A stretch of DNA of 64,000 nt from an uncultured Candidatus Peribacteria bacterium (GTDB taxonomy: Bacteria > Patescibacteriota > Gracilibacteria > UBA1369 > 2-02-FULL-48-14), in NCBI GenBank assembly GCA_964441065.1, contig CAYTWD010000001.1, positions 5,975 through 69,974 on the forward strand, in the 5' to 3' direction. Below are positions 313-13,438 of this stretch, piece by piece. Position 1 is the stretch's first letter. Each line of letters begins with the position of its first letter. Below the pieces are notes generated by a model. That model was not told the origin of the DNA. It saw only the letters and a program-made list of their open reading frames with translations, and did no database searches. A program made the translations under genes and the position numbers.

Positions 313-2901
313 TTAAATACAAGCCTGAGCAGCCGCCAATCTGGCAACCGGCACGCGGTAAGGTGAGCAACTAACATAATTTAAACCTATTTCTTGGCAG
401 AACATAACTGATTTTGGCTCGCCGCCGTGTTCTCCGCAAATTCCAATTTCCAATCCGGGTTTTGTCGAACGCCCCAATTTCACCGCGATTCTCATCAACT
501 GACCAACACCTTCCTGATCAATTGATTCCGTCGGATCTTGTTTATAAAGCCCGTGTTCGGTGTAGAAAGGCAGGAATGAGCCCGCGTCATCACGACTCAT
601 ACCAAATGTCATCTGAGTGAGATCATTCGTTCCAAAACTGAAGAAATCGGCCTCTTTTGCGATTTGATCTGCGGTCACACAAGCGCGCGGCAACTCAATC
701 ATCGTTCCAACTTTCCAACTGAAATTTAATTCACCCATTTCCTCGGCAATTTTGAAAATCATCTCTCTAATTCTGCGAAGCTCGGAAACATCTCCCACAA
801 GCGGAACTTCAATTTCAATCAAAGGTTTAACGCCTTCAAGTACAACTGATTTCCCTGCTTCAAAAATTGCTCGAACCTGCATTTCATAAATTTCCGGTGA
901 TGTAATTCCAAGCCTGCAACCTCTGTGCCCGAGCATTGGATTTATTTCGTGAAGCGAGCTCGCAACTTTTCTTAGCGCTTCAAATTCAACTCCCATATCT
1001 TGTGATAGCGCCTTAATTTTGGCATCTGTATCAGGTAAAAATTCGTGAAGGGGAGGATCAAGCAAACGAATCGTCACAGGCAAATCATTCATTACTTTGA
1101 AAATTCCTTTAAAATCTTCTCTTTGCATTTCTTGGAGTGCGCGAAGCGGCACTTTTCGGGCTTCGGCATCTTTTGATAAAATCATTTGTCTCACCAAATT
1201 AATTCTATCGGTGTCAAAAAACATGTGCTCCGTTCTGCACAAACCAATGCCCTCCGCGCCGAATTTTCTTGCAATCTCCGCGTCAAAAGGCGTGTCCGCG
1301 TTAGTTCGAATTTTCAATTCTCGCACCTCATCAGCCCAAGCCATCAATGTTTCAAAATCCTTTGTTAATTCCGGATCTTTCATTGGAGCCAAACCCTTAA
1401 TCACCTCTCCTGTACTGCCATTCAAAGTTATAACATCTCCTTCACCAAAAATGTGCCCGCCAATTTTTAAAGTTTTAGTTGCTTCATCTACTTGGACATC
1501 TTTACAACCCGCAATACAACACTTGCCCATTCCCCGCGCCACAACCGCCGCGTGGCTGGTCATTCCTCCTGTTGAAGTCAAAATTCCTTGAGCCGCGTGC
1601 ATTCCGTGAATGTCCTCAGGTGAAGTTTCTTTTCTAACTAAAATAACTTTTTCTCCGGTCTCGGCCATGTCATAAGCTGTGTCCGCGTTAAACACAATTT
1701 TTCCGGCCGCCGCGCCTGGAGAAGCCGGCAAACCCTTCGCAACAACCTCAAGTTTGAACTTGGAATCAATCGACGGATGCAAAAGCTGATTCAACTGATT
1801 TGGTTCGATTCGTTTCAACGCTTCATGTTTTGTAATTAAACCTTCCGCAACCATGTCTATCGCGACTTTAATCGCAGCCGCCACAGTTCTCTTCCCGTTT
1901 CTGGTTTGAAGCATGTAAAGTTTTCCTTCTTCAATTGTAAATTCAATGTCCTGCATGTCTTTGTAATGAGACTCAAGCTTCAATTGAATTTCGAAAAGTT
2001 TATCGTAAGCCGCGGGAATTTTTTCCTTTAGCATTTCAATTTTTTCAGGAGTTCTGATTCCGGCAACCACATCTTCACCCTGCGCGTTCAACAAAAATTC
2101 TCCAAAGAAATAATGTTCTCCGGTTGAAGGATTTCTAGTGAAAGCCACACCTGTTCCCGACTGCTCGCCCATGTTCCCGAAAACCATCGACTGTACATTC
2201 ACGGCTGTCCCCAAATTGTGCGCGTAACCGTGCATATTTCTATAGGTAATCGCGCGCTTGTTATTCCACGAACTGAACACAGCCTCAATCGCCATTTGCA
2301 ATTGCTCTCTCGGCTCTTCAGGGAACGCGCGCCCCGCATGTTTATTTACAATATCTTTAAAAATCATAACCAACTTTTTCCAATCTTCAGCGCTCATTTC
2401 CGTGTCCAATTCCACGCCCTTCGCTTTTTTTGCAGCATCCAATGCCTCTTCAAAATGATCATGACCAACTCCCATAACCACATTCCCGAACATAGTCACA
2501 AATCTTCTGTAAGAGTCATAACAAAATCTCGCATTGCTGGTTTTTTCTATCATCGCGGCTACCGTGTCATCATTCAAACCAAGGTTCAAAATCGTGTCCA
2601 TCATTCCGGGCATGGAAAATTTCGATCCCGATCTAACCGAAACCAGAAGAGGATTTGTTTTTGAGCCAAAACTTTTCTTAGTCGCGTGCTCCAGCTCATC
2701 CAACTTCTCATTTAAATCATGTTCAAAGCCCGCTGGATACTCGTCTTTCTCCAAAAAATAGTTGCAAACTTCAGTTGTAATTGTGAATCCCGGAGGTACC
2801 GGTAATCCCAAATTTGTCATCTCCGCAAGATTGGCACCTTTTCCGCCAAGCAAATCCTTCATCTTCTGATTTCCTTCCGAGAACGAGTAGATGTATTTCA
2901 T
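313..2901 (-). CDS. ppdK: pyruvate, phosphate dikinase
   Basis: 862 aa. The N-terminus FSEGNQKMKDLLGGKGANLAEM, the phospho-His region GGMTSHAAVVARGMG and the PEP-utilising C-terminal domain (GICGEHGG) are all typical of PPDK. Confidence 0.95.
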   Translation of the reverse strand: MKYIYSFSEGNQKMKDLLGGKGANLAEMTNLGLPVPPGFTITTEVCNYFLEKDEYPAGFEHDLNEKLDELEHATKKSFGSKTNPLLVSVRSGSKFSMPGMMDTILNLGLNDDTVAAMIEKTSNARFCYDSYRRFVTMFGNVVMGVGHDHFEEALDAAKKAKGVELDTEMSAEDWKKLVMIFKDIVNKHAGRAFPEEPREQLQMAIEAVFSSWNNKRAITYRNMHGYAHNLGTAVNVQSMVFGNMGEQSGTGVAFTRNPSTGEHYFFGEFLLNAQGEDVVAGIRTPEKIEMLKEKIPAAYDKLFEIQLKLESHYKDMQDIEFTIEEGKLYMLQTRNGKRTVAAAIKVAIDMVAEGLITKHEALKRIEPNQLNQLLHPSIDSKFKLEVVAKGLPASPGAAAGKIVFNADTAYDMAETGEKVILVRKETSPEDIHGMHAAQGILTSTGGMTSHAAVVARGMGKCCIAGCKDVQVDEATKTLKIGGHIFGEGDVITLNGSTGEVIKGLAPMKDPELTKDFETLMAWADEVRELKIRTNADTPFDAEIARKFGAEGIGLCRTEHMFFDTDRINLVRQMILSKDAEARKVPLRALQEMQREDFKGIFKVMNDLPVTIRLLDPPLHEFLPDTDAKIKALSQDMGVEFEALRKVASSLHEINPMLGHRGCRLGITSPEIYEMQVRAIFEAGKSVVLEGVKPLIEIEVPLVGDVSELRRIREMIFKIAEEMGELNFSWKVGTMIELPRACVTADQIAKEADFFSFGTNDLTQMTFGMSRDDAGSFLPFYTEHGLYKQDPTESIDQEGVGQLMRIAVKLGRSTKPGLEIGICGEHGGEPKSVMFCQEIGLNYVSCSPYRVPVARLAAAQACI

Positions 2902-2941: not shown

Positions 2942-4192
2942 TTAATAACCTCCACGCATCTTTATTGCCTCCTCTAATCGACGCATAGCGCTTATATAAG
3001 CCGCAGCTCTCAAACTTGTATCAAACTTCAAAGCATTTTCATGCACGGCTTCCCAAGCCGCCACCATAATTGTTTTCAATTTTTGCTGAACTTCTTCAGC
3101 CGTCCAATAAAAATTCATATTATTTTGCACAAGTTCAAAGTAACTCACGGTCACACCGCCGGCATTAGCTAAAATATCCGGAATAACTTTCACGCCCATT
3201 CCCTCCAAAATCTCATCCGCTTCAGGACTAACCGGTCCGTTCGCAAGTTCCAACACAATCGAAGCTTTAACCTTCGCCGCATTGTCCGTTGTAACTTGAT
3301 TTTCCAAGGCCGATAAAATCAAAATATCACAATCGACTTCCAAAATTTGCTCGTTTGTCATCATTTCACAGGCTTCTCCGCTACCAAAACACTCGGCAAC
3401 GCTTCCAGCATCAATTTTACAGGTCATAGCATCGAGCGGGTTCAAGCCGTTTTTACAATAAAGCGCGCCTTTTGAATCTGAAACCCCGATAATTTTGAAG
3501 CCTTTTTCGTAAAGCATTCTCGCAACGTGTGAACCGGCGTTCCCAAACCCCTGAATTACAACTCTTGTATCTTTCGCTTCTTTTTTGCCATACTGCTTTA
3601 ACATTTCTTCAAGTACATAAACTCCGCCTTGGCTTGTCGCGTCAGCTCTACCCTGAGAGCCACCGATTGAAATCGCCTTTCCGGTGACAACTCCGGGAAT
3701 ATTTTTCCCGTGAATTTTTGAATACTCATCTACAATCCAAGCCATGATTTGTGGATTTGTGTAAACATCAGGAGCAGGTACATCGATATCAGGACCAATA
3801 AAATCAGAAATCGCGGCTGTATACCTTCTTGTCATTCTCTCTAGTTCTCTTGGTGAAAGTTCTTTTGGATCAACAATCACTCCGCCTTTTCCTCCTCCCA
3901 GCGGAATATTCACAACTGCGCATTTAATCGTCATCCAAGTTGCAAGCGCCTTAACTTCATCCATATCAACCCGCGGATGGTAACGAATCCCGCCTTTATA
4001 AGGGCCTCTCACATTATTATGCTGAACGCGAAAACCTCTGAAAATTCTAATTGCACCGTTGTCCATTTTAATCGGCACACTAACCTCCAAAATTCTGTCG
4101 GGATTGCTCAATACCATTTCAACATTCGGATCCAATTTCATCAACTTTCCGGCTTTTTGTATTTGTTTCAGCGTGTTCTCAAAAAGTGACAT
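2942..4192 (-). CDS. gdhA: glutamate dehydrogenase (Glu/Leu/Phe/Val dehydrogenase family)
   Basis: 416 aa. Contains the catalytic Lys motif PLGGGKGG, the KGGIRYHP motif, and a GFGNAG Rossmann dinucleotide site. Confidence 0.9.
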   Translation of the reverse strand: MSLFENTLKQIQKAGKLMKLDPNVEMVLSNPDRILEVSVPIKMDNGAIRIFRGFRVQHNNVRGPYKGGIRYHPRVDMDEVKALATWMTIKCAVVNIPLGGGKGGVIVDPKELSPRELERMTRRYTAAISDFIGPDIDVPAPDVYTNPQIMAWIVDEYSKIHGKNIPGVVTGKAISIGGSQGRADATSQGGVYVLEEMLKQYGKKEAKDTRVVIQGFGNAGSHVARMLYEKGFKIIGVSDSKGALYCKNGLNPLDAMTCKIDAGSVAECFGSGEACEMMTNEQILEVDCDILILSALENQVTTDNAAKVKASIVLELANGPVSPEADEILEGMGVKVIPDILANAGGVTVSYFELVQNNMNFYWTAEEVQQKLKTIMVAAWEAVHENALKFDTSLRAAAYISAMRRLEEAIKMRGGY

Positions 4193-4193
4193 A

Positions 4194-5711
4194 TTATTCG
4201 GTTAAATAATCTAAAGTGATTTGAGCTGCCTCCTTAATTTTTTCTGGGCTGGCATTCACTAGCGAAGCCCTAACTGAGTTCAATCTTGATTTGGTTTTTC
4301 TATCTTCCGCTGAGAAAAATAAATTTGCGGGAATATAAATCACGCCGCGTTTTGCAAGTTCACACATCTTTTCTTCAGCCGGAACCCCTTGTTTATTCGC
4401 TCCTTCAATTTCGTCCATATCAAACATCACATAGTATAGATTGTTCTTGTTTTTTAAGCCTAAAATCCCATTAAAAATTTCATGGTTCTTTTTTACTACC
4501 CCTCGATAGTCATGTCTTTCCTCGCTTCCCAATAGAATATGAGCCGCTCCCAAATATTGCGCAGGTCCGGGAACAAAAGTTGTGTGTTGCAACTCGCCCG
4601 CTCCGCTCGGTCCTTTCGCAAAAATAAATGAAGTTTTAAAATCAACACCCCCGGTCAACAAGTCCTTGAACTTCTTAGTTAAGTATTCATTTCCTTCTTT
4701 TGTAATCAAAACATCTCCAAATCGCAAACCGGTGCTTCTCTCAATTTTGGATCTAGCCTGAATTCTCACGGTTCTCTCCGGGCAAAAATCAATCATGGTC
4801 TTTTTCTCCGGGAAGAACGAGCTGTAAACTTCATCTGTCACCACTAGCGAATCGTGTTCAACCGCAAAGTCCGCGAGCATTTTCAAGTTTTCTTCAGAAA
4901 CGGAAACTCCTGTCGGATTATTCGGATCAATCAAAATCACCAATTTTATTTTTTTCAAATTCTTCAGCATCTCCGCGTTTGTAATTTCACCACTAACAGG
5001 ATCCATCGCCAAACTCACGGCCTCCAAACCAAGATGTTCCAAAATGTCGTTATAAGGCGAGTAGGCGGGTGAAAAAATCAAAACTTTATCTCCTGGATTT
5101 AAATATTGCATGCCGTCGTGTCCTAGCAATTTAAAAATCGTCCCAATTGCATGTGAAGCTCCGTTTGTAAAAATAATGTCTTCATAATTGAAATCGGTCG
5201 ATACGGTTTTTTTATGCCACCACGCCACAATCGCTCTCACCAATTTTTCACCCTGCGGATCGTGATAAGTTCCACCACTCACTGTTGAATATTTGAAAAT
5301 TTCATAAAGCACATCATATGGACTCATCTTCAAACCCTGCTCTTCACAAATTTGCACGGCTCTTTGAATGAACTCGCTTAAATCCTCCAAATATCTTTCC
5401 GCAACTGCCGGGACATAGTTCGAACGAGCAAATCCAGCAATTTCTTCCAGAATCTTCCCCTCACGCTCTTTTTTTGTTTCGACGAATCTTCTTCCGGAAT
5501 TATTCAATTTCGTGTCTAAAAACAAAAGAAATGAAAGAAACTCTCTCCCCCGAATTCCGGGAGCAAAGCCGTAACCCGGGTCTCCTCTTGAAAGATCAAT
5601 CATTGCGCCGGCTCCCACGCTCTCTTTTGCAACCTCCTGTAATAATCTAAAAATTTTAAATGGGTTGTTATGTTCAATCGAGAATCCCCATTTATTGTCG
5701 TACAGTTTCAT
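4194..5711 (-). CDS. PLP-dependent aminotransferase, class I/II fold, long form (possibly aspartate 4-decarboxylase-like)
   Basis: 505 aa. Contains LSRGDPGYGF, NPNNPTG and a SKIERSTGLRFG-type PLP-Lys region. The subfamily assignment is uncertain. Confidence 0.65.
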   Translation of the reverse strand: MKLYDNKWGFSIEHNNPFKIFRLLQEVAKESVGAGAMIDLSRGDPGYGFAPGIRGREFLSFLLFLDTKLNNSGRRFVETKKEREGKILEEIAGFARSNYVPAVAERYLEDLSEFIQRAVQICEEQGLKMSPYDVLYEIFKYSTVSGGTYHDPQGEKLVRAIVAWWHKKTVSTDFNYEDIIFTNGASHAIGTIFKLLGHDGMQYLNPGDKVLIFSPAYSPYNDILEHLGLEAVSLAMDPVSGEITNAEMLKNLKKIKLVILIDPNNPTGVSVSEENLKMLADFAVEHDSLVVTDEVYSSFFPEKKTMIDFCPERTVRIQARSKIERSTGLRFGDVLITKEGNEYLTKKFKDLLTGGVDFKTSFIFAKGPSGAGELQHTTFVPGPAQYLGAAHILLGSEERHDYRGVVKKNHEIFNGILGLKNKNNLYYVMFDMDEIEGANKQGVPAEEKMCELAKRGVIYIPANLFFSAEDRKTKSRLNSVRASLVNASPEKIKEAAQITLDYLTE

Positions 5712-5744
5712 AAGTTTTTTGGTGAAAAGAGTCTATGATGAATG

Positions 5745-6239
5745 CTATTTTCCCGCAAGCATAATGCGATTGCGTAGCCACTCAAAGACTCTTACAAATA
5801 TACTTCTTCTCTTTAGACTTAGCTCTTTTTGCAATTTTTCTATTATTGAAAACAAAAACATTTTATCTTCATAGTCTTGTCTATTAGGCAATATTTTTTC
5901 CTCTTGTATGTCAAGCACGTAAAAATCGTTTTCCTGTTGCGGTTCAAATGCAGTTCGACTATACAAATTTTCGGCTTGATAAGGCGCCACGTCTTCCACT
6001 GCTTCTTCTTGCGGCATAATCTCAGTTTGTATAGGCGAATTAGGAAACATAGGTCTTTGCGGCAAACTGTATCCCATGTGAATCAATAACTCCGGGCTAA
6101 CCACATATTGGTAACCCTGTGGAGTTTTAATTCTCCTGGCATTTAAATCACCTTTTTTAATTAATCTCCTTAGGGTTTGTATGGATTTATCCATAATCAT
6201 CGAAGCTTCTTGTAGACTTAAGTAAGACTTCCCATCCAT
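5745..6239 (-). CDS. helix-turn-helix DNA-binding protein (excisionase/MerR-like HTH at the N-terminus)
   Basis: 164 aa. The N-terminus LSLQEASMIMDKSIQTLRRLIKKGDLNARRI is a typical HTH_17-like motif. The C-terminal part is uncharacterised. Confidence 0.5.
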   Translation of the reverse strand: MDGKSYLSLQEASMIMDKSIQTLRRLIKKGDLNARRIKTPQGYQYVVSPELLIHMGYSLPQRPMFPNSPIQTEIMPQEEAVEDVAPYQAENLYSRTAFEPQQENDFYVLDIQEEKILPNRQDYEDKMFLFSIIEKLQKELSLKRRSIFVRVFEWLRNRIMLAGK

Positions 6240-6318
6240 AAAATTATACTAAAATATAATTAAAGCTTTATATCAAATCGACACTCGATTCACGGCTTAT
6301 TCTACATGAAATTTTCAA

Positions 6319-6437
6319 TTCGACTATACAAAATTAATTATGGCCAAAATATTGTATAATTCGCCTATACACTTTTTCAAAATCGACTATACAAATGAAG
6401 TGCTTTCTCTGTTCTATACTATAAAACCGCCTATACA
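6319..6437. repeat. four same-orientation copies of the 12-nt motif TTCG[A/C]CTATACA
   Basis: Read directly at 6319-6330, 6360-6371, 6382-6393 (ATCG variant) and 6426-6437 (ACCG variant). Confidence 0.85.
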
Positions 6438-6553
6438 TGTTGAATAGTTGACAGAACTTTTTCCAAAAGCTGTTGAAATATATTTTGTAGCTCATTTCGA
6501 TTGCATACTTGACCACGAGTTGCTAGGATTTTTCTGATCTTAATTTTGAAATC

Positions 6554-7111
6554 GTGGACATCAGACTTTCTTGGGACCTCTTCGTGTTGGTATTCTTCGG
6601 GATTGTAATCGCGTACAGCTTTATTATTGGCCGTAATCAAACACTTAAAGTAATTATTGCCTGTTACATGGCAATTCTTTCTGCAGACGGTTTAGGGAAC
6701 ATATTTAAACAATATGTATTTCCTCAAATGCCGACTCTTCAAGGAACAGACGCAGATAACGCTTTAATTTTCCTAAAGATTTTTGTATTCGTTTTAGCCA
6801 TCGTTTTGATTGCTATCAAAGGGGGATTTTATGTGGATATTATGTTCGAGAGATCACTAGTAACCAGATTAATGGCGACACTTACCTTCGGTTTCCTTAA
6901 CGCAGGACTGATTGTGAGCACGATTCTTGTTTATATTTCAGGCGCATCTTTCGTTGGAGGATCGATAAACATTGCAACCAGCACTAATCTCTATAAAGAA
7001 TCACAATTCGTTAAACTGATGATTGATAACTACAATATTTGGTTTGCCTTACCTGCAATTGCCCTTGTACTTATTAGTTTTTTTGAGCCAAGACAAGCGC
7101 CTCCCGCATAA
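6554..7111 (+). CDS. integral membrane protein, unknown function
   Basis: 185 aa starting at GTG, with about five hydrophobic helices. I recognise no family motif. Confidence 0.5.
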   Translation: MDIRLSWDLFVLVFFGIVIAYSFIIGRNQTLKVIIACYMAILSADGLGNIFKQYVFPQMPTLQGTDADNALIFLKIFVFVLAIVLIAIKGGFYVDIMFERSLVTRLMATLTFGFLNAGLIVSTILVYISGASFVGGSINIATSTNLYKESQFVKLMIDNYNIWFALPAIALVLISFFEPRQAPPA

Positions 7112-7115
7112 TGTC

Positions 7116-7144
7116 TTGCCTTAATCGCATCTTGCCAATAAAAT
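7116..7144 (+). promoter_or_regulatory. sigma70-like promoter for tRNA-Lys
   Basis: TTGCCT (7116-7121), a 17-nt spacer, then TAAAAT (7139-7144). The -10 element ends about 14 nt upstream of the tRNA 5' end. Confidence 0.4.
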
Positions 7145-7157
7145 ACAGCCACATTTT

Positions 7158-7233
7158 GGGTCGGTAGCTCAGTTGGTAGAGCAACAGCCTTTTAAGCTGA
7201 TGGTCCCGGGTTCGATTCCCGGCCGACCCACCA
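7158..7233 (+). tRNA. tRNA-Lys (anticodon UUU), CCA encoded
   Basis: Cloverleaf read by hand. The acceptor arms are GGGTCGG and CCGACCC, the anticodon loop is CTTTTAA, the T-arm is CCGGGTTCGATTCCCGG, and the 3' end is ACCA. Confidence 0.9.
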
Positions 7234-7236
7234 CCA

Positions 7237-7259
7237 CTCACACGGAGTGTGAGCTTTTT
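7237..7259 (+). terminator. intrinsic terminator after tRNA-Lys
   Basis: Hairpin CTCACAC-GGA-GTGTGAG followed by CTTTTT. Confidence 0.6.
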
Positions 7260-7357
7260 GTATTACGCACGTAGTGCGAGGAGTTACGCCGTAGGCGAGA
7301 ACTTTTGCACTACTTTTCAACATTCTTAGACAATGTCCAGTGTCCTCCTCGACGTCT

Positions 7358-7428
7358 AAAGTTTTGCACAATTACAGGTTATAATAAAGTTTTGCACAAC
7401 AAATAAATCATTAAAAAGTTTTGCACAA
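7358..7428. repeat. three direct copies of AAAGTTTTGCACAA at 28-29 bp spacing
   Basis: Exact 14-mers at 7358-7371, 7386-7399 and 7415-7428. A degenerate copy (AACTTTTGCACTA) lies near 7300. Confidence 0.85.
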
Positions 7429-7477
7429 CACTCGACGCAGTCGAGCTACACTAAGAAAATGCGCGTAGCGCTCCAAC

Positions 7478-8611
7478 CTAAAATATCCCATCAAAAAAAC
7501 CTTCCGACTTCACATTAACTTTGCTCTCTTTCGCCAAGTTCTCAAATAGTTCTCTCTCTTTCTTTGTAAGCTTTTCAGGGATTTTAACATTCACTTTTAA
7601 GATATGATCACCCATCTTATCTGATCTTATGTTAGGAGCTCCTTTTCCCTTAATGCTTAGTTCAGTTCCGCTCTGAATTCCAGCGGGAATCTTCAAGTCA
7701 ACTTTCCCATGCACGGTTTCAACTTTAATATTCGCACCCAAAATAGCCTGTAAAACGTGAATGTCTTCACTAGAGTGAATATTAGGACCGTCTCTCAGGA
7801 ATTTTTTATGCGCAAAAACTCTAACATGAACATATAAATCACCGTGCTTTCCACCTCTAACCCCTGCGGAGCCCTTTTCCTTAATTTTTATTGATGTCCC
7901 GTCTTCAATGCCTTTCGGAATTTTAACGGTAACCTCCTCAGTCTGCTTGGTACGCATCTGACCTCGACATTCAATGCACAATTTTTCAGGAATCTCACCT
8001 GTTCCTTGACATGTTGGACATAAATGTACACTGCTCATTTTACCCAAAATTGTCTGTCTCGTAACCCTAACCTGCCCCTGCCCGTTACATTGTCCACATT
8101 TTTTGACAGAAGTTCCGGGTTCGTTACCTTTGCCCGCACATTTTTTGCAGGTTTCAGGTTTTGTTATTTCAAGATATTTTTCAACCCCAAAAATTGCCTC
8201 TTCAAATTTAATATCAACCTGAACCTGAATGTCATTTCCCCTTATAGGTCCTGCTTTGGCAGTCTGTTCTTCTCCCCTCATATTTTCACCAAAGAAACTC
8301 TCAAAAATATCAGCAAATCCGGCAAAATCATTCGGATTAAACCCACCCTGAGCCCCATTGAATCCAAATCCACCACCTTGTGCCCCCCTTTGAGAGGCTC
8401 CTGCAGATCCAAATCTGTCATAATTAGCACGTTTTTGAGGGTCTGAAAGAATTTCATATGCCTCCTGCACAGATTTAAACTTCTTTTCGGCTTCTTTATT
8501 ATTCGGATTTTTATCGGGGTGGAACTCCTGAGCTTTCTTCCTGTAGGCTTTTTTAATTTCACCTTCAGTTGCTCCTTTGCCTACTCCCAGTGTTGAATAT
8601 AGATCGTCCAT
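7478..8611 (-). CDS. dnaJ: molecular chaperone DnaJ
   Basis: 377 aa. J domain with HPDKNP, a G/F-rich linker, and four zinc-finger repeats (three canonical CxxCxGxG, the fourth, CIECRGQM, degenerate at its last Gly). Confidence 0.95.
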
Positions 8612-8712
8612 ATTTATTTGTGTAAGGAAGTTTTATCTTACATTCATTACGTTGGCAAGCAATAAAAGGACATATTAATGACGAGTAGACAAGCCATTAA
8701 TAGAAGACAAAG

Positions 8713-9024
8713 TGTATAGCCGAAAAATGGCTACCGTATAAGGAAAAACTCAATTCGACTATACAAAAATATTTTGATAAGCTTATCAGAGTTGCGTGTA
8801 TAGGCGAAGCGACGTAGAGATATATATATTAACCTATAGATTTTGACATCAAAAAATATCAAATTTGTATATTGACACAAAGGTATTTAATGCATACCTC
8901 GAAATTAAAGAATTATATTTCCTCTTGTCAATCAGGGGAAAATGGCATATATAAAACAAGAACTCAAATTCGACTATACAAAATTTTGAGGGTTTGGATA
9001 GGCGACTCGTCGTGTATAGGCGAA
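8713..9024. repeat. duplicated ~90-nt module, each copy carrying an inverted pair of the TTCGNCTATACA motif
   Basis: Motif copies at 8713-8724 (+), 8754-8765 (-), 8797-8808 (+), 8969-8980 (-) and 9013-9024 (+), with a partial copy at 8996-9006. The segments 8721-8808 and 8936-9024 are colinear. Confidence 0.8.
8925..8953 (+). promoter_or_regulatory. sigma70-like promoter candidate upstream of tRNA-Glu
   Basis: TTGTCA (8925-8930), a 17-nt spacer, then TATATA (8948-8953). A second candidate, TTGAAA-N17-TATCTT, lies at about 9064-9092. Confidence 0.35.
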
Positions 9025-9122
9025 AAAAGGTTGTCAAGTGTAGACACGATTTTCCAAGAAAATCTTGAAAGAGTAGACAATCTTAAATATCTTATCGCTT
9101 GTCGATTCTGGCCCTAGATTCC

Positions 9123-9197
9123 GGTCCCATCGTCTAGCGGTTAGGACACCGGATTCTCATTCCGGTAACAGGGGTTCGATTCCCCTTGGGACTACCA
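9123..9197 (+). tRNA. tRNA-Glu (anticodon CUC), CCA encoded
   Basis: The acceptor arms are GGTCCCA and TGGGACT, the anticodon stem-loop is CCGGA-TTCTCAT-TCCGG, and the T-arm is AGGGGTTCGATTCCCCT. The overall sequence resembles canonical bacterial tRNA-Glu. Confidence 0.9.
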
Positions 9198-9559
9198 ATG
9201 AAACCGGAAAAAAATGTGTCAACTGGGAATGTACAAAAATATGAAACATAATGTCTAGTGTAGACGTTTCAACCCCCGACACGACAAATATTGTTTGATG
9301 ATTGTCTAAAGAGTCCTTACCTAAATATCTGACACCTTTATATACTTCGGTCCTTGAAATCACGGCCACTCGACGAAAGTCGAGCTAACTATAAAGAGAA
9401 CTTAAGCGATTTGGAGAAATCGCGAGAAAATTACTTAATTTACTGACACTGTTGCTTTTTAGGTCGGGCAACAGAGAAAACTTCTTTTAAGCTTATTCCG
9501 ACTTACATGAATCGAATTTTATTCGATTTCATTTTTTATTTCCTAATGAAAAGATTCAA

Positions 9560-12500
9560 ATGAATATCTCTTTCATATATAGGAAGTTCCGAAAATCTAT
9601 AGCTGGTATTGCTCTAACTGCACTTCTTGCGTCTTTCGTAAGTTTTGCAGCTGTTGCATCAGCGTCATTCCCTGACACTGATGGACACTGGGCATCTGAC
9701 TACATTGATGAACTAGTTTCACAAGGTGTAGTTTCCGGTTATGACAACGGTAACTTCGGTCCAGATGATTCTCTAACAAGAGGTCAATTGGCAAAAATCG
9801 CAGTTCTAGCCTTCGGGATAGAACTAGACAGCAGCTACGATGCAGGATTCGCTGATGTGGATTCAAATGCATGGTACGCTGAATACGTAAATACAGCAGC
9901 TAAGAACGGTATCGTTGGTGGTTACACTGACTCTAACGGTGTTGCAACTGGATATTTTGGTCCAGATGACACAGTTAACCGAGCTCAAGCAGCTAAAATT
10001 CTTGTAAACGCAGCTGGTCTTGCTACAGACACTACGGGAGCTCCTCATTTCGATGACGTTGCTTCAGGTGATTGGTACTACGACTACGTTGAAACAGCTT
10101 ACAACAACACAGTTGTTGATGGTTACAGCAATGGAAACTACGGTCCTGCTGATGCAGTGACTCGTGGTCAGATTTCTAAGATGACCGTTAACTCTCAGAA
10201 CCCTGTTGTTCGTGATACAACCGACGATACCACAGATGATACTACATCTGGTGATGGTACTCTAAAACTAGAGATGATCAGCATCGACGGTGGTACAGTT
10301 CCAAAGGGTGCTACAGCCGTTCCGGTTCTTGGAATTAAGGCTACAGCTTCTGGAGCAGACATGACATTGAAATCATTGGTATTGAGCCGAAGTGGAGTAG
10401 GTGCTACATCCGATATTTCAAACTTGTACTTCTACAACGGCACAGAAAGAATTGGATCAGGTCACTCTGTAAGCAGCGACACAAACACTTCAACATTCAG
10501 TTCACTTAACGTGGACGTTGCTGAAGGTGAGTCTGCTATGTTCTACATCAAATCTGATTTCTCTTCTACAGCCTCTTCAGGAAATGAACACTATTTCTCC
10601 GTACCAAGTGCAGACGTTGTTGGAGTTGATAGCGGTTCAGTGACTGGATCATACCCATTAGACGGTGATGTATTCACAGTTGGTGGTGCATCTGCAGGAA
10701 CAGTTACAATCTCAAGAAATAGCTCAGTATCTAACCCAACAATCGGTGATACAGATGCTACTGTTGCTGATTTCAAACTTGCAGGAGCTAATGAAAATAT
10801 GTCAGTTCAGCACATTGCTCTTATTGTTAAAGGAACAATCTCTACTACAGGTCTAGACATGCTTTCACTTGTTCAAAACGGTGAAGTATTGGCTACTGCC
10901 GACGTAGTAAGTGATAATCAATTGATCACTTTTGATCTTGATACTCCTTTCGAACTAAACAAGGGTGATACAAGAACATTCTCTGTAACTACAGAAGTTA
11001 CTTCAAAAGCAAGACCTGATGATACAATTAAGATTTATCTTGATGAAACAACAGATCTAGTAGCTATCGGTGAAACTTATGGCTACGGTGCTCAGGTTAC
11101 AAAGACAGATTACGACAACAGTGCCGCTGACGGTACTGATGCTAGCTGGTCAACAGTTCAGGGTGGAGACTTTACAATAGCCTTCGGAGGTCCTTCTGTA
11201 TCTAACTTTGCACCAAATGCAAAAGACGTTCAGATCTTGGATCTTACATTCTCTTCTCAAAGAGACGTTGAGGTTAGAAGACTTTCATTCCTTGTTGCCG
11301 CTACAGGTTCAGGTTTGATCGATGCTGATGGCGCTACTGCGAACTTCACAGACGTTAAACTTATTGATACTGACTCTGGTTCTACATTGATGGGGCCACA
11401 GGAATTATCAGTCACTGGTTCTGACTCAAGTCAAACAGTTGCATTCACTGATAGCTGGTATTTATCAGCAGGTGAATCAATGAGCGCGGCTCTTTCAGTA
11501 GATATTGCTAACGAATCAACCATGGACGGTTCAACCGTTACTGGTACCTTGTCTGCAGTAAGCACAACTGAAGGTGTTAAGGATTCAGGTACAGGTCAAT
11601 TCTTGACTAATATCGTTCCTTCTACAGCTATAGCTGGTTACGCGCACAACATTCAAACAGCTTCTCTAGCTGTTGCTTTAGCTTCAAGCCCGGTTTCTGA
11701 CACATTCGTGAAAGGAACTATGGGAGTTACTCTTGCAGGTTTCGTATTCACAGCTGGTTCTGCTAGCGACATCGTAATCAGTAAGATCCTACCTACACTT
11801 GATTACTGTACATCAGCTTGTACAGCAGCAGGTTCATGGACGGCTTCTGGTTCATCAGGTGCTTACTACGGTAAGACTGACGTAGGTACTTTGTACTTAT
11901 ACGACGAAGACGGTAACCAACTTGGTACTTCTGAGGCAGTTCCAAACGGTGGTAAACCTACTTTTGATGGATTTAACCTAACTGTATCTGCAGGTTCAAC
12001 TGAAACTGTGTACGTAGTTGGTGATATTTCATCATCAGCTCCAATTGACGATGGTACTTCTACTACAACTAACGTTGTTGGTGTAGATATCGAAGCTACA
12101 GGTGACGTAACTGCTGCAGACGAAGACAACAACTCAGTAACATTGACAGCTGCTGATCCAAACGGTTCAACAGATACAAATGCTACAACTGTTGCTATGA
12201 CTATCTCTACAGGTGGTTCAATCGTAGTTAGTGCTCCTTCAACTCAGGTTAATGACCAACTTCTAGCAGCTGCATCTACTGATGTATTGCTTGGAAGATT
12301 CAAAGTTAAGGCTACTAGCGAAGATTACAAAGTTGATAGAATTATGCTTTACTCAACAAACAGTGGATCTGAAGATTCATTCAAGTCAGTAAAGATCAAG
12401 TATCCAACAAGCACAAGTGCTCCAACAACTCTTGATGGATCATCTAGTGCTACATTCTCAGGTACAGCGGCTACATTCGCTAACTTGAGTTTCATGGTTC

Positions 12501-13438
12501 CAAAATCAAACGACAATGTGACATTTGAGATCTACGTATCTGCAAATACACACGCCGACGATTCTGGTGCTACAGATTCTGGAGATGATCTTCAGATGAC
12601 TCTATACCCATACGCTGCAACTACATCTACAAGCACATTCAACGCTGTAGGTCAGGGTTCTGGTGCTACATCGACAGCGGCTACAGCGAGTGTAATCCCA
12701 GCCGGAGGTCTATCTACAAACCATGCGTATGTATTTAAGACAACTCCAACAGTAACAGTTGCTGATGACTCTGCTTCTATCGTTTACGGTACTGAGGCTG
12801 AAGTATTCAGATTCACAGTTGCTGCGGGTGCGAACGGCGATATTGCTCTTCTTGGTCTTAAGTTCGATGTATCATCTTCAGGTGTCTTGACTGGTTCAAC
12901 TGGTCTTGGTGCTGTTGATACAGCTACTTACTCAAGAAACGCAGGTGATGCTCTATCCAACACTTGGAAGATGTACGAAGTTGTTAACGGTTCAGTTGAT
13001 AACTCAGTACCGGTAGGTTCAGGTCAATACTTATACGGTCCAGGAATTGGTTCTGCTCTAACAAACCTTGTATACATGCAGGTTTACCAGAACATTACTA
13101 ACTGGGCTGCTGGTACAGGTGCTTTCGAAAAAATTACTGCTGGTTCAAGCAGAACATTCGTTGTAGATGCTCCAGTACAGGATGATGGTACTTCAAACAC
13201 CAACTCCGTATCTGTACGTATCTCTACAGACAATAGCGCTCTATACCAACAATTGGCTACTGACACTATTACTACAGGTCTAGATAACTATGATGGTGTA
13301 ACCGTTCTAGGTTCATCTTCATTCATCTGGTCTGATCGACCAAACGTTTCAGGCTTTGGTACAGGTTCTTCCGCTACATACTGGAATAACGCTTACAAAG
13401 TTACTGGCGTACCTTCAAGTTACGTAACATCTACATGA
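9560..13438 (+). CDS. secreted SLH-domain surface (S-layer) protein
   Basis: 1292 aa. Signal peptide ending AAVASA|SF, followed by three SLH repeats (FPDTDGHWASDYI..., FADVDSNAWYAEYV..., FDDVASGDWYYDYV...). The remaining roughly 1050 aa are rich in Thr, Ser, Gly, Ala, Val and Asp. Codon choice is strongly T-ending, which suggests high expression. Confidence 0.85.
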   Translation: MNISFIYRKFRKSIAGIALTALLASFVSFAAVASASFPDTDGHWASDYIDELVSQGVVSGYDNGNFGPDDSLTRGQLAKIAVLAFGIELDSSYDAGFADVDSNAWYAEYVNTAAKNGIVGGYTDSNGVATGYFGPDDTVNRAQAAKILVNAAGLATDTTGAPHFDDVASGDWYYDYVETAYNNTVVDGYSNGNYGPADAVTRGQISKMTVNSQNPVVRDTTDDTTDDTTSGDGTLKLEMISIDGGTVPKGATAVPVLGIKATASGADMTLKSLVLSRSGVGATSDISNLYFYNGTERIGSGHSVSSDTNTSTFSSLNVDVAEGESAMFYIKSDFSSTASSGNEHYFSVPSADVVGVDSGSVTGSYPLDGDVFTVGGASAGTVTISRNSSVSNPTIGDTDATVADFKLAGANENMSVQHIALIVKGTISTTGLDMLSLVQNGEVLATADVVSDNQLITFDLDTPFELNKGDTRTFSVTTEVTSKARPDDTIKIYLDETTDLVAIGETYGYGAQVTKTDYDNSAADGTDASWSTVQGGDFTIAFGGPSVSNFAPNAKDVQILDLTFSSQRDVEVRRLSFLVAATGSGLIDADGATANFTDVKLIDTDSGSTLMGPQELSVTGSDSSQTVAFTDSWYLSAGESMSAALSVDIANESTMDGSTVTGTLSAVSTTEGVKDSGTGQFLTNIVPSTAIAGYAHNIQTASLAVALASSPVSDTFVKGTMGVTLAGFVFTAGSASDIVISKILPTLDYCTSACTAAGSWTASGSSGAYYGKTDVGTLYLYDEDGNQLGTSEAVPNGGKPTFDGFNLTVSAGSTETVYVVGDISSSAPIDDGTSTTTNVVGVDIEATGDVTAADEDNNSVTLTAADPNGSTDTNATTVAMTISTGGSIVVSAPSTQVNDQLLAAASTDVLLGRFKVKATSEDYKVDRIMLYSTNSGSEDSFKSVKIKYPTSTSAPTTLDGSSSATFSGTAATFANLSFMVPKSNDNVTFEIYVSANTHADDSGATDSGDDLQMTLYPYAATTSTSTFNAVGQGSGATSTAATASVIPAGGLSTNHAYVFKTTPTVTVADDSASIVYGTEAEVFRFTVAAGANGDIALLGLKFDVSSSGVLTGSTGLGAVDTATYSRNAGDALSNTWKMYEVVNGSVDNSVPVGSGQYLYGPGIGSALTNLVYMQVYQNITNWAAGTGAFEKITAGSSRTFVVDAPVQDDGTSNTNSVSVRISTDNSALYQQLATDTITTGLDNYDGVTVLGSSSFIWSDRPNVSGFGTGSSATYWNNAYKVTGVPSSYVTST

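Follow-up and report, generated by a model that had tools for sequence, protein, structure and literature searches.

A 12-nt word confined to two loci

What acts on a short DNA word that recurs around the genes of a small helix-turn-helix (HTH) protein and of DnaJ in an uncultured Candidatus Peribacteria bacterium? The question arises from a 64-kb stretch of contig CAYTWD010000001.1 (the window, i.e., the whole 64,000 nt analyzed), in which the 12-nt word TTCGNCTATACA has nine exact matches, compared with 0.04 expected, and 0 of 100 shuffles contained as many. The sites are real and non-random, and they are linked to the HTH gene family. They are almost certainly a set of protein-binding (operator) sites. 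With a probability of roughly 0.6, we read them as operator arrays of the adjacent 164-residue winged-HTH protein, which would be autoregulatory and would also control dnaJ and, perhaps, tRNA-Glu. The window scan gave the following copies.

5954, 6319, 6360, 8754 and 8969, plus strand: exact copies of TTCGNCTATACA
6028, 8713, 8797 and 9013, minus strand: exact copies of TTCGNCTATACA
8996-9005: partial copy, GGATAGGCGA, at the place given in the original prediction, which had been made by reading the window

When one mismatch to TTCGNCTATACA is allowed, the ATCG variant at 6382 is also found. The core CGNCTATACA has 11 copies in the window against 0.13 expected, including the ACCG variant at 6426, and the eleven copies of the original prediction were thus recovered at the positions listed there. 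All copies of the core lie between 5954 and 9024, a span of 3.1 kb, and there are none elsewhere in the 64 kb. Outside 5954-9024, the relaxed consensus has 8 matches compared with about 6.6 expected, which is the chance level. The objection that composition alone would produce a similar density throughout the window fails on this distribution and on the shuffles. The copies had been described as lying in the spacers around tRNA-Lys, dnaJ and tRNA-Glu; this is correct for the dnaJ/tRNA-Glu side, whereas tRNA-Lys has no flanking copy.

The short repeated units, the inverted copies and their location inside long spacers recall a degenerate mobile repeat, of the kind of a miniature inverted-repeat transposable element or a repetitive extragenic palindrome, and the original prediction had proposed a degenerate miniature repeat. 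Such a repeat, or a chance effect of base composition, is extremely improbable, given that no shuffle reached the observed count, that the copies are limited to two loci in 64 kb and occupy orthologous positions in distant species, and that neighboring copies keep a spacing of 21-23 or 40-44 bp. A DNA-uptake sequence was rejected in view of the restriction of the word to two loci. A replication origin (oriC) with DnaA boxes was rejected as well; the cumulative GC skew falls throughout the region without a turning point, and the word is unlike a DnaA box.

Putative promoter cassettes of the HTH gene and dnaJ

The sites are arranged relative to the following features.

5745-6239, minus strand: 164-residue winged-HTH protein, the proposed regulator
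6319-6437, minus strand: four direct sites upstream of the HTH gene (6319, 6360, 6382 and 6426; spacing 41/22/44)
6554-7111, plus strand: 185-residue membrane protein
7478-8611, minus strand: dnaJ (Pfam DnaJ, DnaJ_C and DnaJ_CXXCXGXG), the proposed target of cassettes 2 and 3
9123-9197, plus strand: tRNA-Glu(CTC) (ARAGORN, Rfam), divergent from the array and a possible second target
9560-13438, plus strand: SLH-domain surface protein, a possible target like tRNA-Glu

The array at 6319-6437 lies within the divergent region that is common to the HTH gene and the membrane-protein gene. Alignment of upstream regions reveals a cassette shared by the HTH and dnaJ promoters across different lineages, in the order of a far site, approximately 43 bp, a site with a TTGTAT or TTGACT hexamer at the -35 position, 19-22 bp, a -10-like box (TACAAT, TAGAAT, TTATAC or TATATA), AAGCCAT, N4 and CGCCTATACA. 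The window contains three cassette copies, i.e., one at the HTH promoter and two on the dnaJ side, the latter being the modules of about 90 nt that had been noticed at first sight.

6289-6333, minus strand: cassette 1, putative HTH promoter, with site 6319 at -35, TAGAAT at 6299-6304, then AAGCCGT; the downstream site is decayed
8703-8812, minus strand: cassette 2, putative dnaJ promoter P1, with the far site at 8797-8808, the -35-position site at 8754-8765, TTATAC at 8736-8741, GCCAT at 8727-8731 and the downstream site at 8713-8724
8915-9028, minus strand: cassette 3, putative dnaJ promoter P2, with the far site at 9013-9024, the partial copy at 8996-9005, the -35-position site at 8969-8980, and a TATATA box and GCCAT at approximately 8942-8953; the downstream site is decayed

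The two modules are colinear, as had been claimed: repeat finding places them in one family, D2, at 8724-8768 and 8939-8983. A third member of this family, at 6289-6333, precedes the HTH gene, and cassette 1 was defined from it together with the alignment to the cassettes of other lineages. The orthologous cassette 2 is present in loci L002 and L128 (loci outside the window are referred to by L numbers), and the downstream site of cassette 3, decayed in the window, is still recognizable in L002 as TGCCTATATACA. Both dnaJ-side cassettes are oriented toward dnaJ, on the minus strand. The elements from which the original prediction had built its modules are present; its GAAAATGGC and TATAA-like box correspond to the GCCAT element and the -10-like box, which it had read from the opposite strand. 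In distant lineages, CTTG-TGATAAGGCG follows a site located immediately ahead of the HTH start codon, and the two together form an imperfect 24-bp palindrome. The promoter positions of the cassettes are putative, being deduced from these elements, and a generic sigma-70 scan is not above its shuffles.

The inverted pairs might instead encode structured RNAs, either small RNAs or leader hairpins, in which the word would be a stem arm; a small RNA gene family was one of the options originally offered. Each module is able to form a 12-bp stem containing one mismatch, but the A.G mismatch is identical in both modules and uncompensated, and the partner arms in L002 have decayed without compensation. 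The folding z-score of -3.55 is limited to the plus strand of module 1; the other strands and modules have values of -1.2 to -2.4, i.e., folding is weak in three of the four module strands. Within the cassette, the orientation of the site that follows the -10 box is constant with respect to the gene, whereas the sites as a whole occur in both orientations relative to genes, and the same word forms direct arrays that are unable to pair (6319-6437). The Rfam scan that the original prediction had suggested, covering 5000-10000 at E <= 1, returned the two tRNAs and chance-level matches only. An RNA function is quite unlikely on these grounds.

Sites inside the HTH coding sequence

Two copies of the word had been noticed in the HTH coding sequence. 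Both are present, but the count was incomplete, as a third, variant site lies between them.

6028-6039, plus strand: intragenic site i1, TGTATAGGCGAA; the sense strand AAT TCG CCT ATA CAA encodes N-S-P-I-Q
5977-5986, plus strand: intragenic site i2, the variant TGATAAGGCG; the sense strand is CGCCTTATCA
5954-5965, minus strand: intragenic site i3, TGTATAGTCGAA on the sense strand of the gene, encoding L-Y-S-R-T

In nine orthologues, the i1 codons AAT, ATA and CAA are the same throughout, TCG is found in eight, and CCT in seven, with ACT (Thr) in the other two. On the other hand, the invariant residues of the winged-HTH domain are encoded by 2-6 synonymous codons, and synonymous sites outside the intragenic sites are scrambled. 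The sole amino acid change in i1, from P to T (CCT replaced by ACT), coincides with the free N position of the motif, and so does the S-to-R change (AGT to AGG) in the third site. The i2 codon columns read CGCCTATACA in L007 and L128, TTGACTAGTCAA in L024 and TTGATTAATCAA in L070, and the codons orthologous to i3 read TGATTAGTCGGA, TGATTAGTCGAA, CCGACTAGTCAG and CCGACTAATCAG in L007, L128, L024 and L070, respectively. At both positions the DNA word is kept while the peptide varies (APYQ, APIQ, LTSQ and LINQ at the second; LYSRT, LISRT, PTSQS and PTNQN at the third). Given that these codons persist against a background of scrambled synonymous positions, the intragenic sites are under nucleotide-level selection, on DNA or RNA, which shapes the linker of the protein.

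The resulting peptides recur in the family. Among 156 family proteins, S[PT]IQ occurs 41 times compared with 0.9 expected and [LPI][TI][STN][QR] 109 times compared with 14.6 expected. The usual layout of the peptide motifs is x, x+17 and x+24 residues, which equals 51 and 21 nt. In many family linkers (P0011-P0077, e.g., P0052 and P0060), pentapeptides resembling LTSQN, LTNQT or PTSQS recur with a 7-residue period, alongside one to three SPIQ motifs; SPIQ would stem from CGCCTATACA, and the 7-residue repeats of the LTSQN type from TTGACTAGTCAG every 21 bp. Such linkers are consistent with translated arrays, as checked on the DNA of L007, L128, L024 and L070. We tentatively propose that the whole regulator family (more than 200 clusters in Peregrinibacteria, Peribacteria, Gracilibacteria and relatives) keeps operators in its own coding sequence, so that the linker would be largely a by-product of selection on DNA, and that the protein may coat or loop its own gene and act as a global regulator.

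Operators within coding sequences are known from lac O2 in lacZ, gal OI in galE and the autoregulatory operators of purR, where downstream auxiliary operators cooperate with upstream ones. In the present case, by contrast, three intragenic sites lie in the region that encodes the regulator's own linker, they are family-wide, and they dictate SPIQ and LTSQN peptides. No published description of such a peptide imprint by operators was found. Such overlapping codes, in which embedded operators keep codons fixed and give rise to recurring peptide motifs throughout a protein family, are relevant for the interpretation of short linear motifs and repeats in disordered regions.

Conservation of the sites across relatives

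The original prediction had suggested checking whether the modules are conserved in related genomes, and orthologous cassettes and arrays are indeed found in L002, L128 and others. L001 and L002, whose HTH proteins are 84% and 59% identical to that of the window, have the four HTH-upstream sites in the same order with spacings of 44/22/41 bp, and L005 (68%) keeps three of them. In L007 and L128 (about 42%), the array spacing is 42/23/41. Two intragenic sites and the dnaJ-upstream sites are also present in L001 and L002. Overall, sites lie upstream of the HTH gene in L001, L002, L005, L007, L008, L024, L052, L070, L128, L129 and L130, and the word or words lie upstream of dnaJ in L002, L070, L128, L094 and L130. 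Between the window and L002, both intergenic regions are 66-70% identical, which is similar to the flanking coding sequence (67-75%) and far above the third codon positions of the glutamate dehydrogenase (GDH) gene (47%). Position, spacing and cassette architecture are deeply conserved.

The link to the HTH family also emerges from DNA that was collected without any protein query. A scan for direct pairs, TGTATAGNCG-N8-38-TGTATAGNCG, in one genome per species (185,579 species genomes) gave at least 119 stretches, most of them due to chance. Among the matches listed are six Peribacteria genomes, five of which have good motif pairs (the sixth, L077, looks unrelated), together with a Gracilibacteria metagenome-assembled genome (L052) and a Patescibacteria one (L094). 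In L024, L070, L052 and L094, the sites adjoin the HTH orthologue, precede dnaJ, or both, and the same is true of L128, the single locus obtained from a protein-guided scan of metagenome contigs. The pair matches of L077 and L032 were set aside because the sites are within coding sequences and the flanks differ. In Segatella oulorum (L011, 1903-2206; L026, 2101-2487), the pair pattern recurs four to five times at intervals of exactly 84 bp; the array is an unrelated tandem repeat in which TGTATAGNCG is present by coincidence, and it was rejected as a relative.

In three Peribacteria species, a pair of TGTATAGGCG 23 bp apart (L017, 4509-4541; L104, 6863-6895; L111, 1566-1598) is flanked by a prepilin-like gene on one side and, on the other, by the gene of a giant surface protein (>1100 residues; >2000 residues in two loci). 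A TATAAT or TATACT box follows the proximal site at a distance of 8 bp, and this arrangement may mark a third regulon member.

Family members L129, L130 and L131 were looked up after the model had been formed, as a prediction test. In L130 (31% identity), the words precede both dnaJ and the HTH gene and also occur within the latter, and L129, a Gracilibacteria locus with a different gene neighborhood, has the second word (see below) once upstream of the HTH gene and twice inside it.

The winged-HTH protein and known regulators

The AlphaFold model of the 164-residue protein consists of an N-terminal winged HTH (residues ~6-54), a disordered, low-confidence linker (~60-118) and a C-terminal helical hairpin (120-163). 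The winged HTH is formed by helices at residues 9-16, 20-29 and 49-54 and a β-hairpin at residues 34-47, with pLDDT values of 78-89, and it has the MerR/Xis winged-HTH topology according to the model and Foldseek. The first Foldseek matches in the PDB are BldC-DNA complexes (probability = 1.0, target TM = 0.69), followed by P2 Cox, Pukovnik Xis and RacA; the top matches overall have probabilities of 0.92-1.0, target-normalized TM values of about 0.5-0.7 and E-values of 0.04-0.3. The modeled HTH domain is accordingly of a BldC/Cox/Xis-like fold. The best matches of a PDB sequence search have non-significant E-values of 0.35-0.6 (Cox over the HTH, 0.54). The protein scores 19.6 bits with Pfam HTH_17 (PF12728), compared with a cut-off of 27; many family members carry a precomputed PF12728 assignment. 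At E <= 1e-3, 204 representatives of the family are present among 1.84 billion proteins, and at E <= 1e-8 a larger collection contains 226 clusters, named "helix-turn-helix domain-containing", "hypothetical" or "excisionase family" only. The C-terminal motif H-x-E-K..L..L..LQ.EL is conserved across the family.

The best structural match to the N-terminal domain, BldC (MerR-like; PDB accession numbers 6ama and 6amk), binds variable numbers of direct repeats in Streptomyces as cooperative head-to-tail multimers that bend and distort the DNA (PMC5859096), and this variation in repeat number resembles the arrays described here. BldC consists of 68 residues and a winged HTH only, whereas the window protein adds a disordered linker of about 60 residues and the C-terminal hairpin, and it falls outside the strict BldC family (about 70 residues, winged HTH only, no extra domain). 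The BldC repeat, AATT-N4-C, is arranged in tandem approximately 9 bp apart, whereas the words of this study are 12-15 bp long, 21-23 or 40-44 bp apart, in both orientations and in some cases palindromic.

The fold class also matches P2 Cox, Xis and RdfS, i.e., winged-HTH proteins that oligomerize on repeat arrays (4lhf and 4j2n are among the top Foldseek matches). Cox binds direct-repeat arrays and can act as a transcriptional repressor. Unlike in the Cox/Xis systems, no recombinase, att sites or mobile element were found at the locus, and the gene is chromosomal, in a synteny with housekeeping genes that is conserved throughout a class-level lineage. This difference bears on a further explanation, in which the words belong to a recombination system, either as excisionase arm-type sites of an integrated element or as repeats of an invertible surface-protein promoter. 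HTH_17 is of the excisionase type, some family members are labeled accordingly, tRNA genes and a surface-protein gene are close by, and the inverted pairs are 43-44 bp apart. However, no integrase- or recombinase-like open reading frame was found among those scanned in 1-14 kb, gene order is conserved across species with HTH identities from 84% down to about 35%, as is not expected of an island, and the window and L002 are colinear through both modules. No inversion joints were seen at the pairs in the contigs of four metagenome runs, which is a weak negative, and the joints that appeared were tRNA cross-matches only. Recombination is thus a very unlikely function of the sites.

Similar to HspR/HAIR and HrcA/CIRCE, a MerR-superfamily HTH gene is located beside dnaJ, with repeated sites upstream of dnaJ and of the HTH gene, which follows the logic of a chaperone regulon under autoregulation. 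The word is, however, unrelated to either operator, and the HTH gene heads an aminotransferase-GDH-PPDK cluster, not a dnaK operon. Heat-shock operators were rejected as a candidate, since CIRCE has no match in the window at up to 3 mismatches and HAIR a single chance-level match inside another gene; other chaperone genes were not found in the 64-kb window. The system is of a known kind, an autoregulated transcription factor with operators, but the variant is undescribed and occurs in a group in which regulation is essentially unexplored. Full-text literature searches on the words themselves and on regulators or regulons of the candidate phyla radiation (CPR) returned nothing relevant.

Two words and the identity of the binder

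Distant lineages have TTGACTAGTCGGAAT (palindromic core GACTAGTC) in place of TGTATAGNCGAA at many positions of the arrays, with the same spacing, and the L008 array mixes both kinds. The exact second word, TGACTAGTCGGA, is absent from the window; the A-type copies there, TGTATAGTCGAAT (site TGTATAGTCGAA), are two bases from TTGACTAGTCGAAT and one base from TGTATAGGCGAAT. Because the words interchange at homologous positions and TGTATAGTCGAAT and TTGACTAGTCGAAT are so close, they look like variants of one site, and we read them as one probable site family, roughly TTG-WM-TAG-K-CG-R-AT.

A palindrome had been pointed out in the loop of one module and is indeed there.

8775-8788: perfect palindrome TGATAAGCTTATCA, between two sites of cassette 2, conserved in L002

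This palindrome looks like a Fur-type 7-1-7 box minus its central base; it also looks like two inverted TGATAAG half-words of the variant site.

The distances between neighboring sites (80 distances from 13 loci) are concentrated at 21-24 bp (21 distances), 40-44 bp (23), 51-52 bp (7) and 73 bp (4), with a vector strength of approximately 0.5 at a period of 10-10.5 bp; the pooled distances come from orthologous arrays and are not independent, which counts against the operator reading. The same spacings occur at non-homologous loci, namely, the HTH promoter, the dnaJ promoters, the giant-protein promoter and the intragenic array. This suggests that the spacing of the sites follows the phase of the DNA helix.

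The main rival is a different trans-acting factor. The sites would then be operators of one or two other proteins, e.g., separate binders of TGTATAGGCG and of the palindromic TTGACTAGTC, and the HTH gene would merely be a target. Several observations weigh on this side and against the HTH protein. TGTATAGGCG and TTGACTAGTCGGAAT co-occur in relatives, where the two distinct words are adjacent and sometimes abut as TGTATAGGCGCCGACTAGTCGG, so two proteins could be involved. The pairs at L017, L104 and L111 have no HTH gene within 8 kb, and sites so far from it fit any trans-acting factor. The recognition helix, KSxQTLRRLIKKG, is unchanged between lineages with different words, so no co-variation of protein and site is seen. 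To these we add that L131 has neither word under the strict pattern; that the spacer of 19-22 bp between the -35-like and -10-like elements is unusually long; that the mean pLDDT of the whole model is only 67; that the Foldseek E-values are weak (best 0.04) because the domain is small; and that no RNA sequencing runs containing this DNA were found.

Against a separate factor, the words replace each other at homologous positions, both occur in the L008 array, and TGTATAGTCGAAT and TTGACTAGTCGAAT have the appearance of variants of one site. Furthermore, the words follow the HTH family into different neighborhoods (L129) and, family-wide, into its coding sequence. Operators of another protein are on balance unlikely, and we infer that the adjacent HTH protein is the binder. 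The original prediction had named transcription-factor sites, perhaps for this very protein, as one option. This option is favored by conserved position and spacing, both orientations, direct arrays, a spacing suggestive of helical phasing, the link to the HTH family and the resemblance of the modeled HTH domain to proteins that bind arrays of repeats; the binding itself is a prediction.

A proposed model of the regulation

If the HTH protein is the regulator, its arrays cover the putative promoter of its own gene as well as two putative promoters directed at dnaJ, which lie in the dnaJ/tRNA-Glu divergent region, and three sites extend into its coding sequence. Several protomers would bind cooperatively on one face of the DNA and would cover the -35 position and the early transcribed region, and the protein may form loops or a coat along the DNA between about -190 and about +290 of its gene. 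The expected outcome would be autoregulation and co-regulation of dnaJ, possibly with regulation of tRNA-Glu and of the surface-protein gene. Repression seems the likelier sign of regulation because sites occupy the -35 position and the stretch immediately after the -10 box.

Gene regulation in CPR bacteria, which are uncultivated and have genomes of about 1 Mb with very few regulators, is almost unknown. The present finding gives a testable regulator-operator pair, with a defined site, a conserved promoter cassette and a first sketch of a regulon that would comprise the regulator's own operon, dnaJ, tRNA-Glu with the S-layer gene, and the pilin/giant surface-protein locus. If the reading is true, the protein would belong to the small set of global regulators in these tiny genomes, linking dnaJ, a tRNA and the S-layer, pilus and giant surface-protein genes.

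Gene order and neighboring repeats

The other genes of the locus are as follows.

313-2901, minus strand: PPDK
2942-4192, minus strand: GDH
4194-5711, minus strand: aminotransferase
7158-7233, plus strand: tRNA-Lys

Homologues of the HTH protein are found in Candidatus Peregrinibacteria, Peribacteria and Gracilibacteria (CPR), and this DNA was found in DNA metagenomes from wastewater, groundwater and a lake. The order dnaJ, membrane protein, HTH, (aminotransferase), GDH and PPDK is shared by loci with HTH proteins that are 84, 68, 59, about 42, 31-37 and 29% identical to that of the window, the aminotransferase gene being missing in some lineages. As the order is conserved across such divergent loci, the region is a chromosomal neighborhood and not an island. 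On the other side, the order SLH/giant protein, tRNA, array and dnaJ is conserved in L070, L128 and L094. The 185-residue multi-pass membrane protein, without a Pfam family, is strongly conserved (N-terminus xDIRLSWDLFxLVFFGIVIAYSFIIGRNQTLKVII); its gene is always located between dnaJ and the HTH gene and shares the array-bearing promoter region with the latter in most lineages.

Two other short repeats were observed. The spacer between the convergent 3' ends of tRNA-Lys and dnaJ (7234-7477) contains three direct copies of TAAAGTTTTGCACAA at 7357-7428, 28-29 bp apart. The GTTTTGCACA word from this repeat is also found within the motif arrays of L024, L128, L094 and L002 and may be a further conserved regulatory word of the lineage. 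Around tRNA-Glu, the word GTAGACA recurs at 8685, 9038, 9072 and 9258 (TGTC(A/T)AGTGTAGAC at 9032 and 9252). GTAGACA is conserved as GTGGACA in L002 and is present also in L070 and L128; one copy in the window lies inside the spacer of a putative tRNA-Glu promoter, TTGAAA-N17-TATCTT, at 9066-9094.

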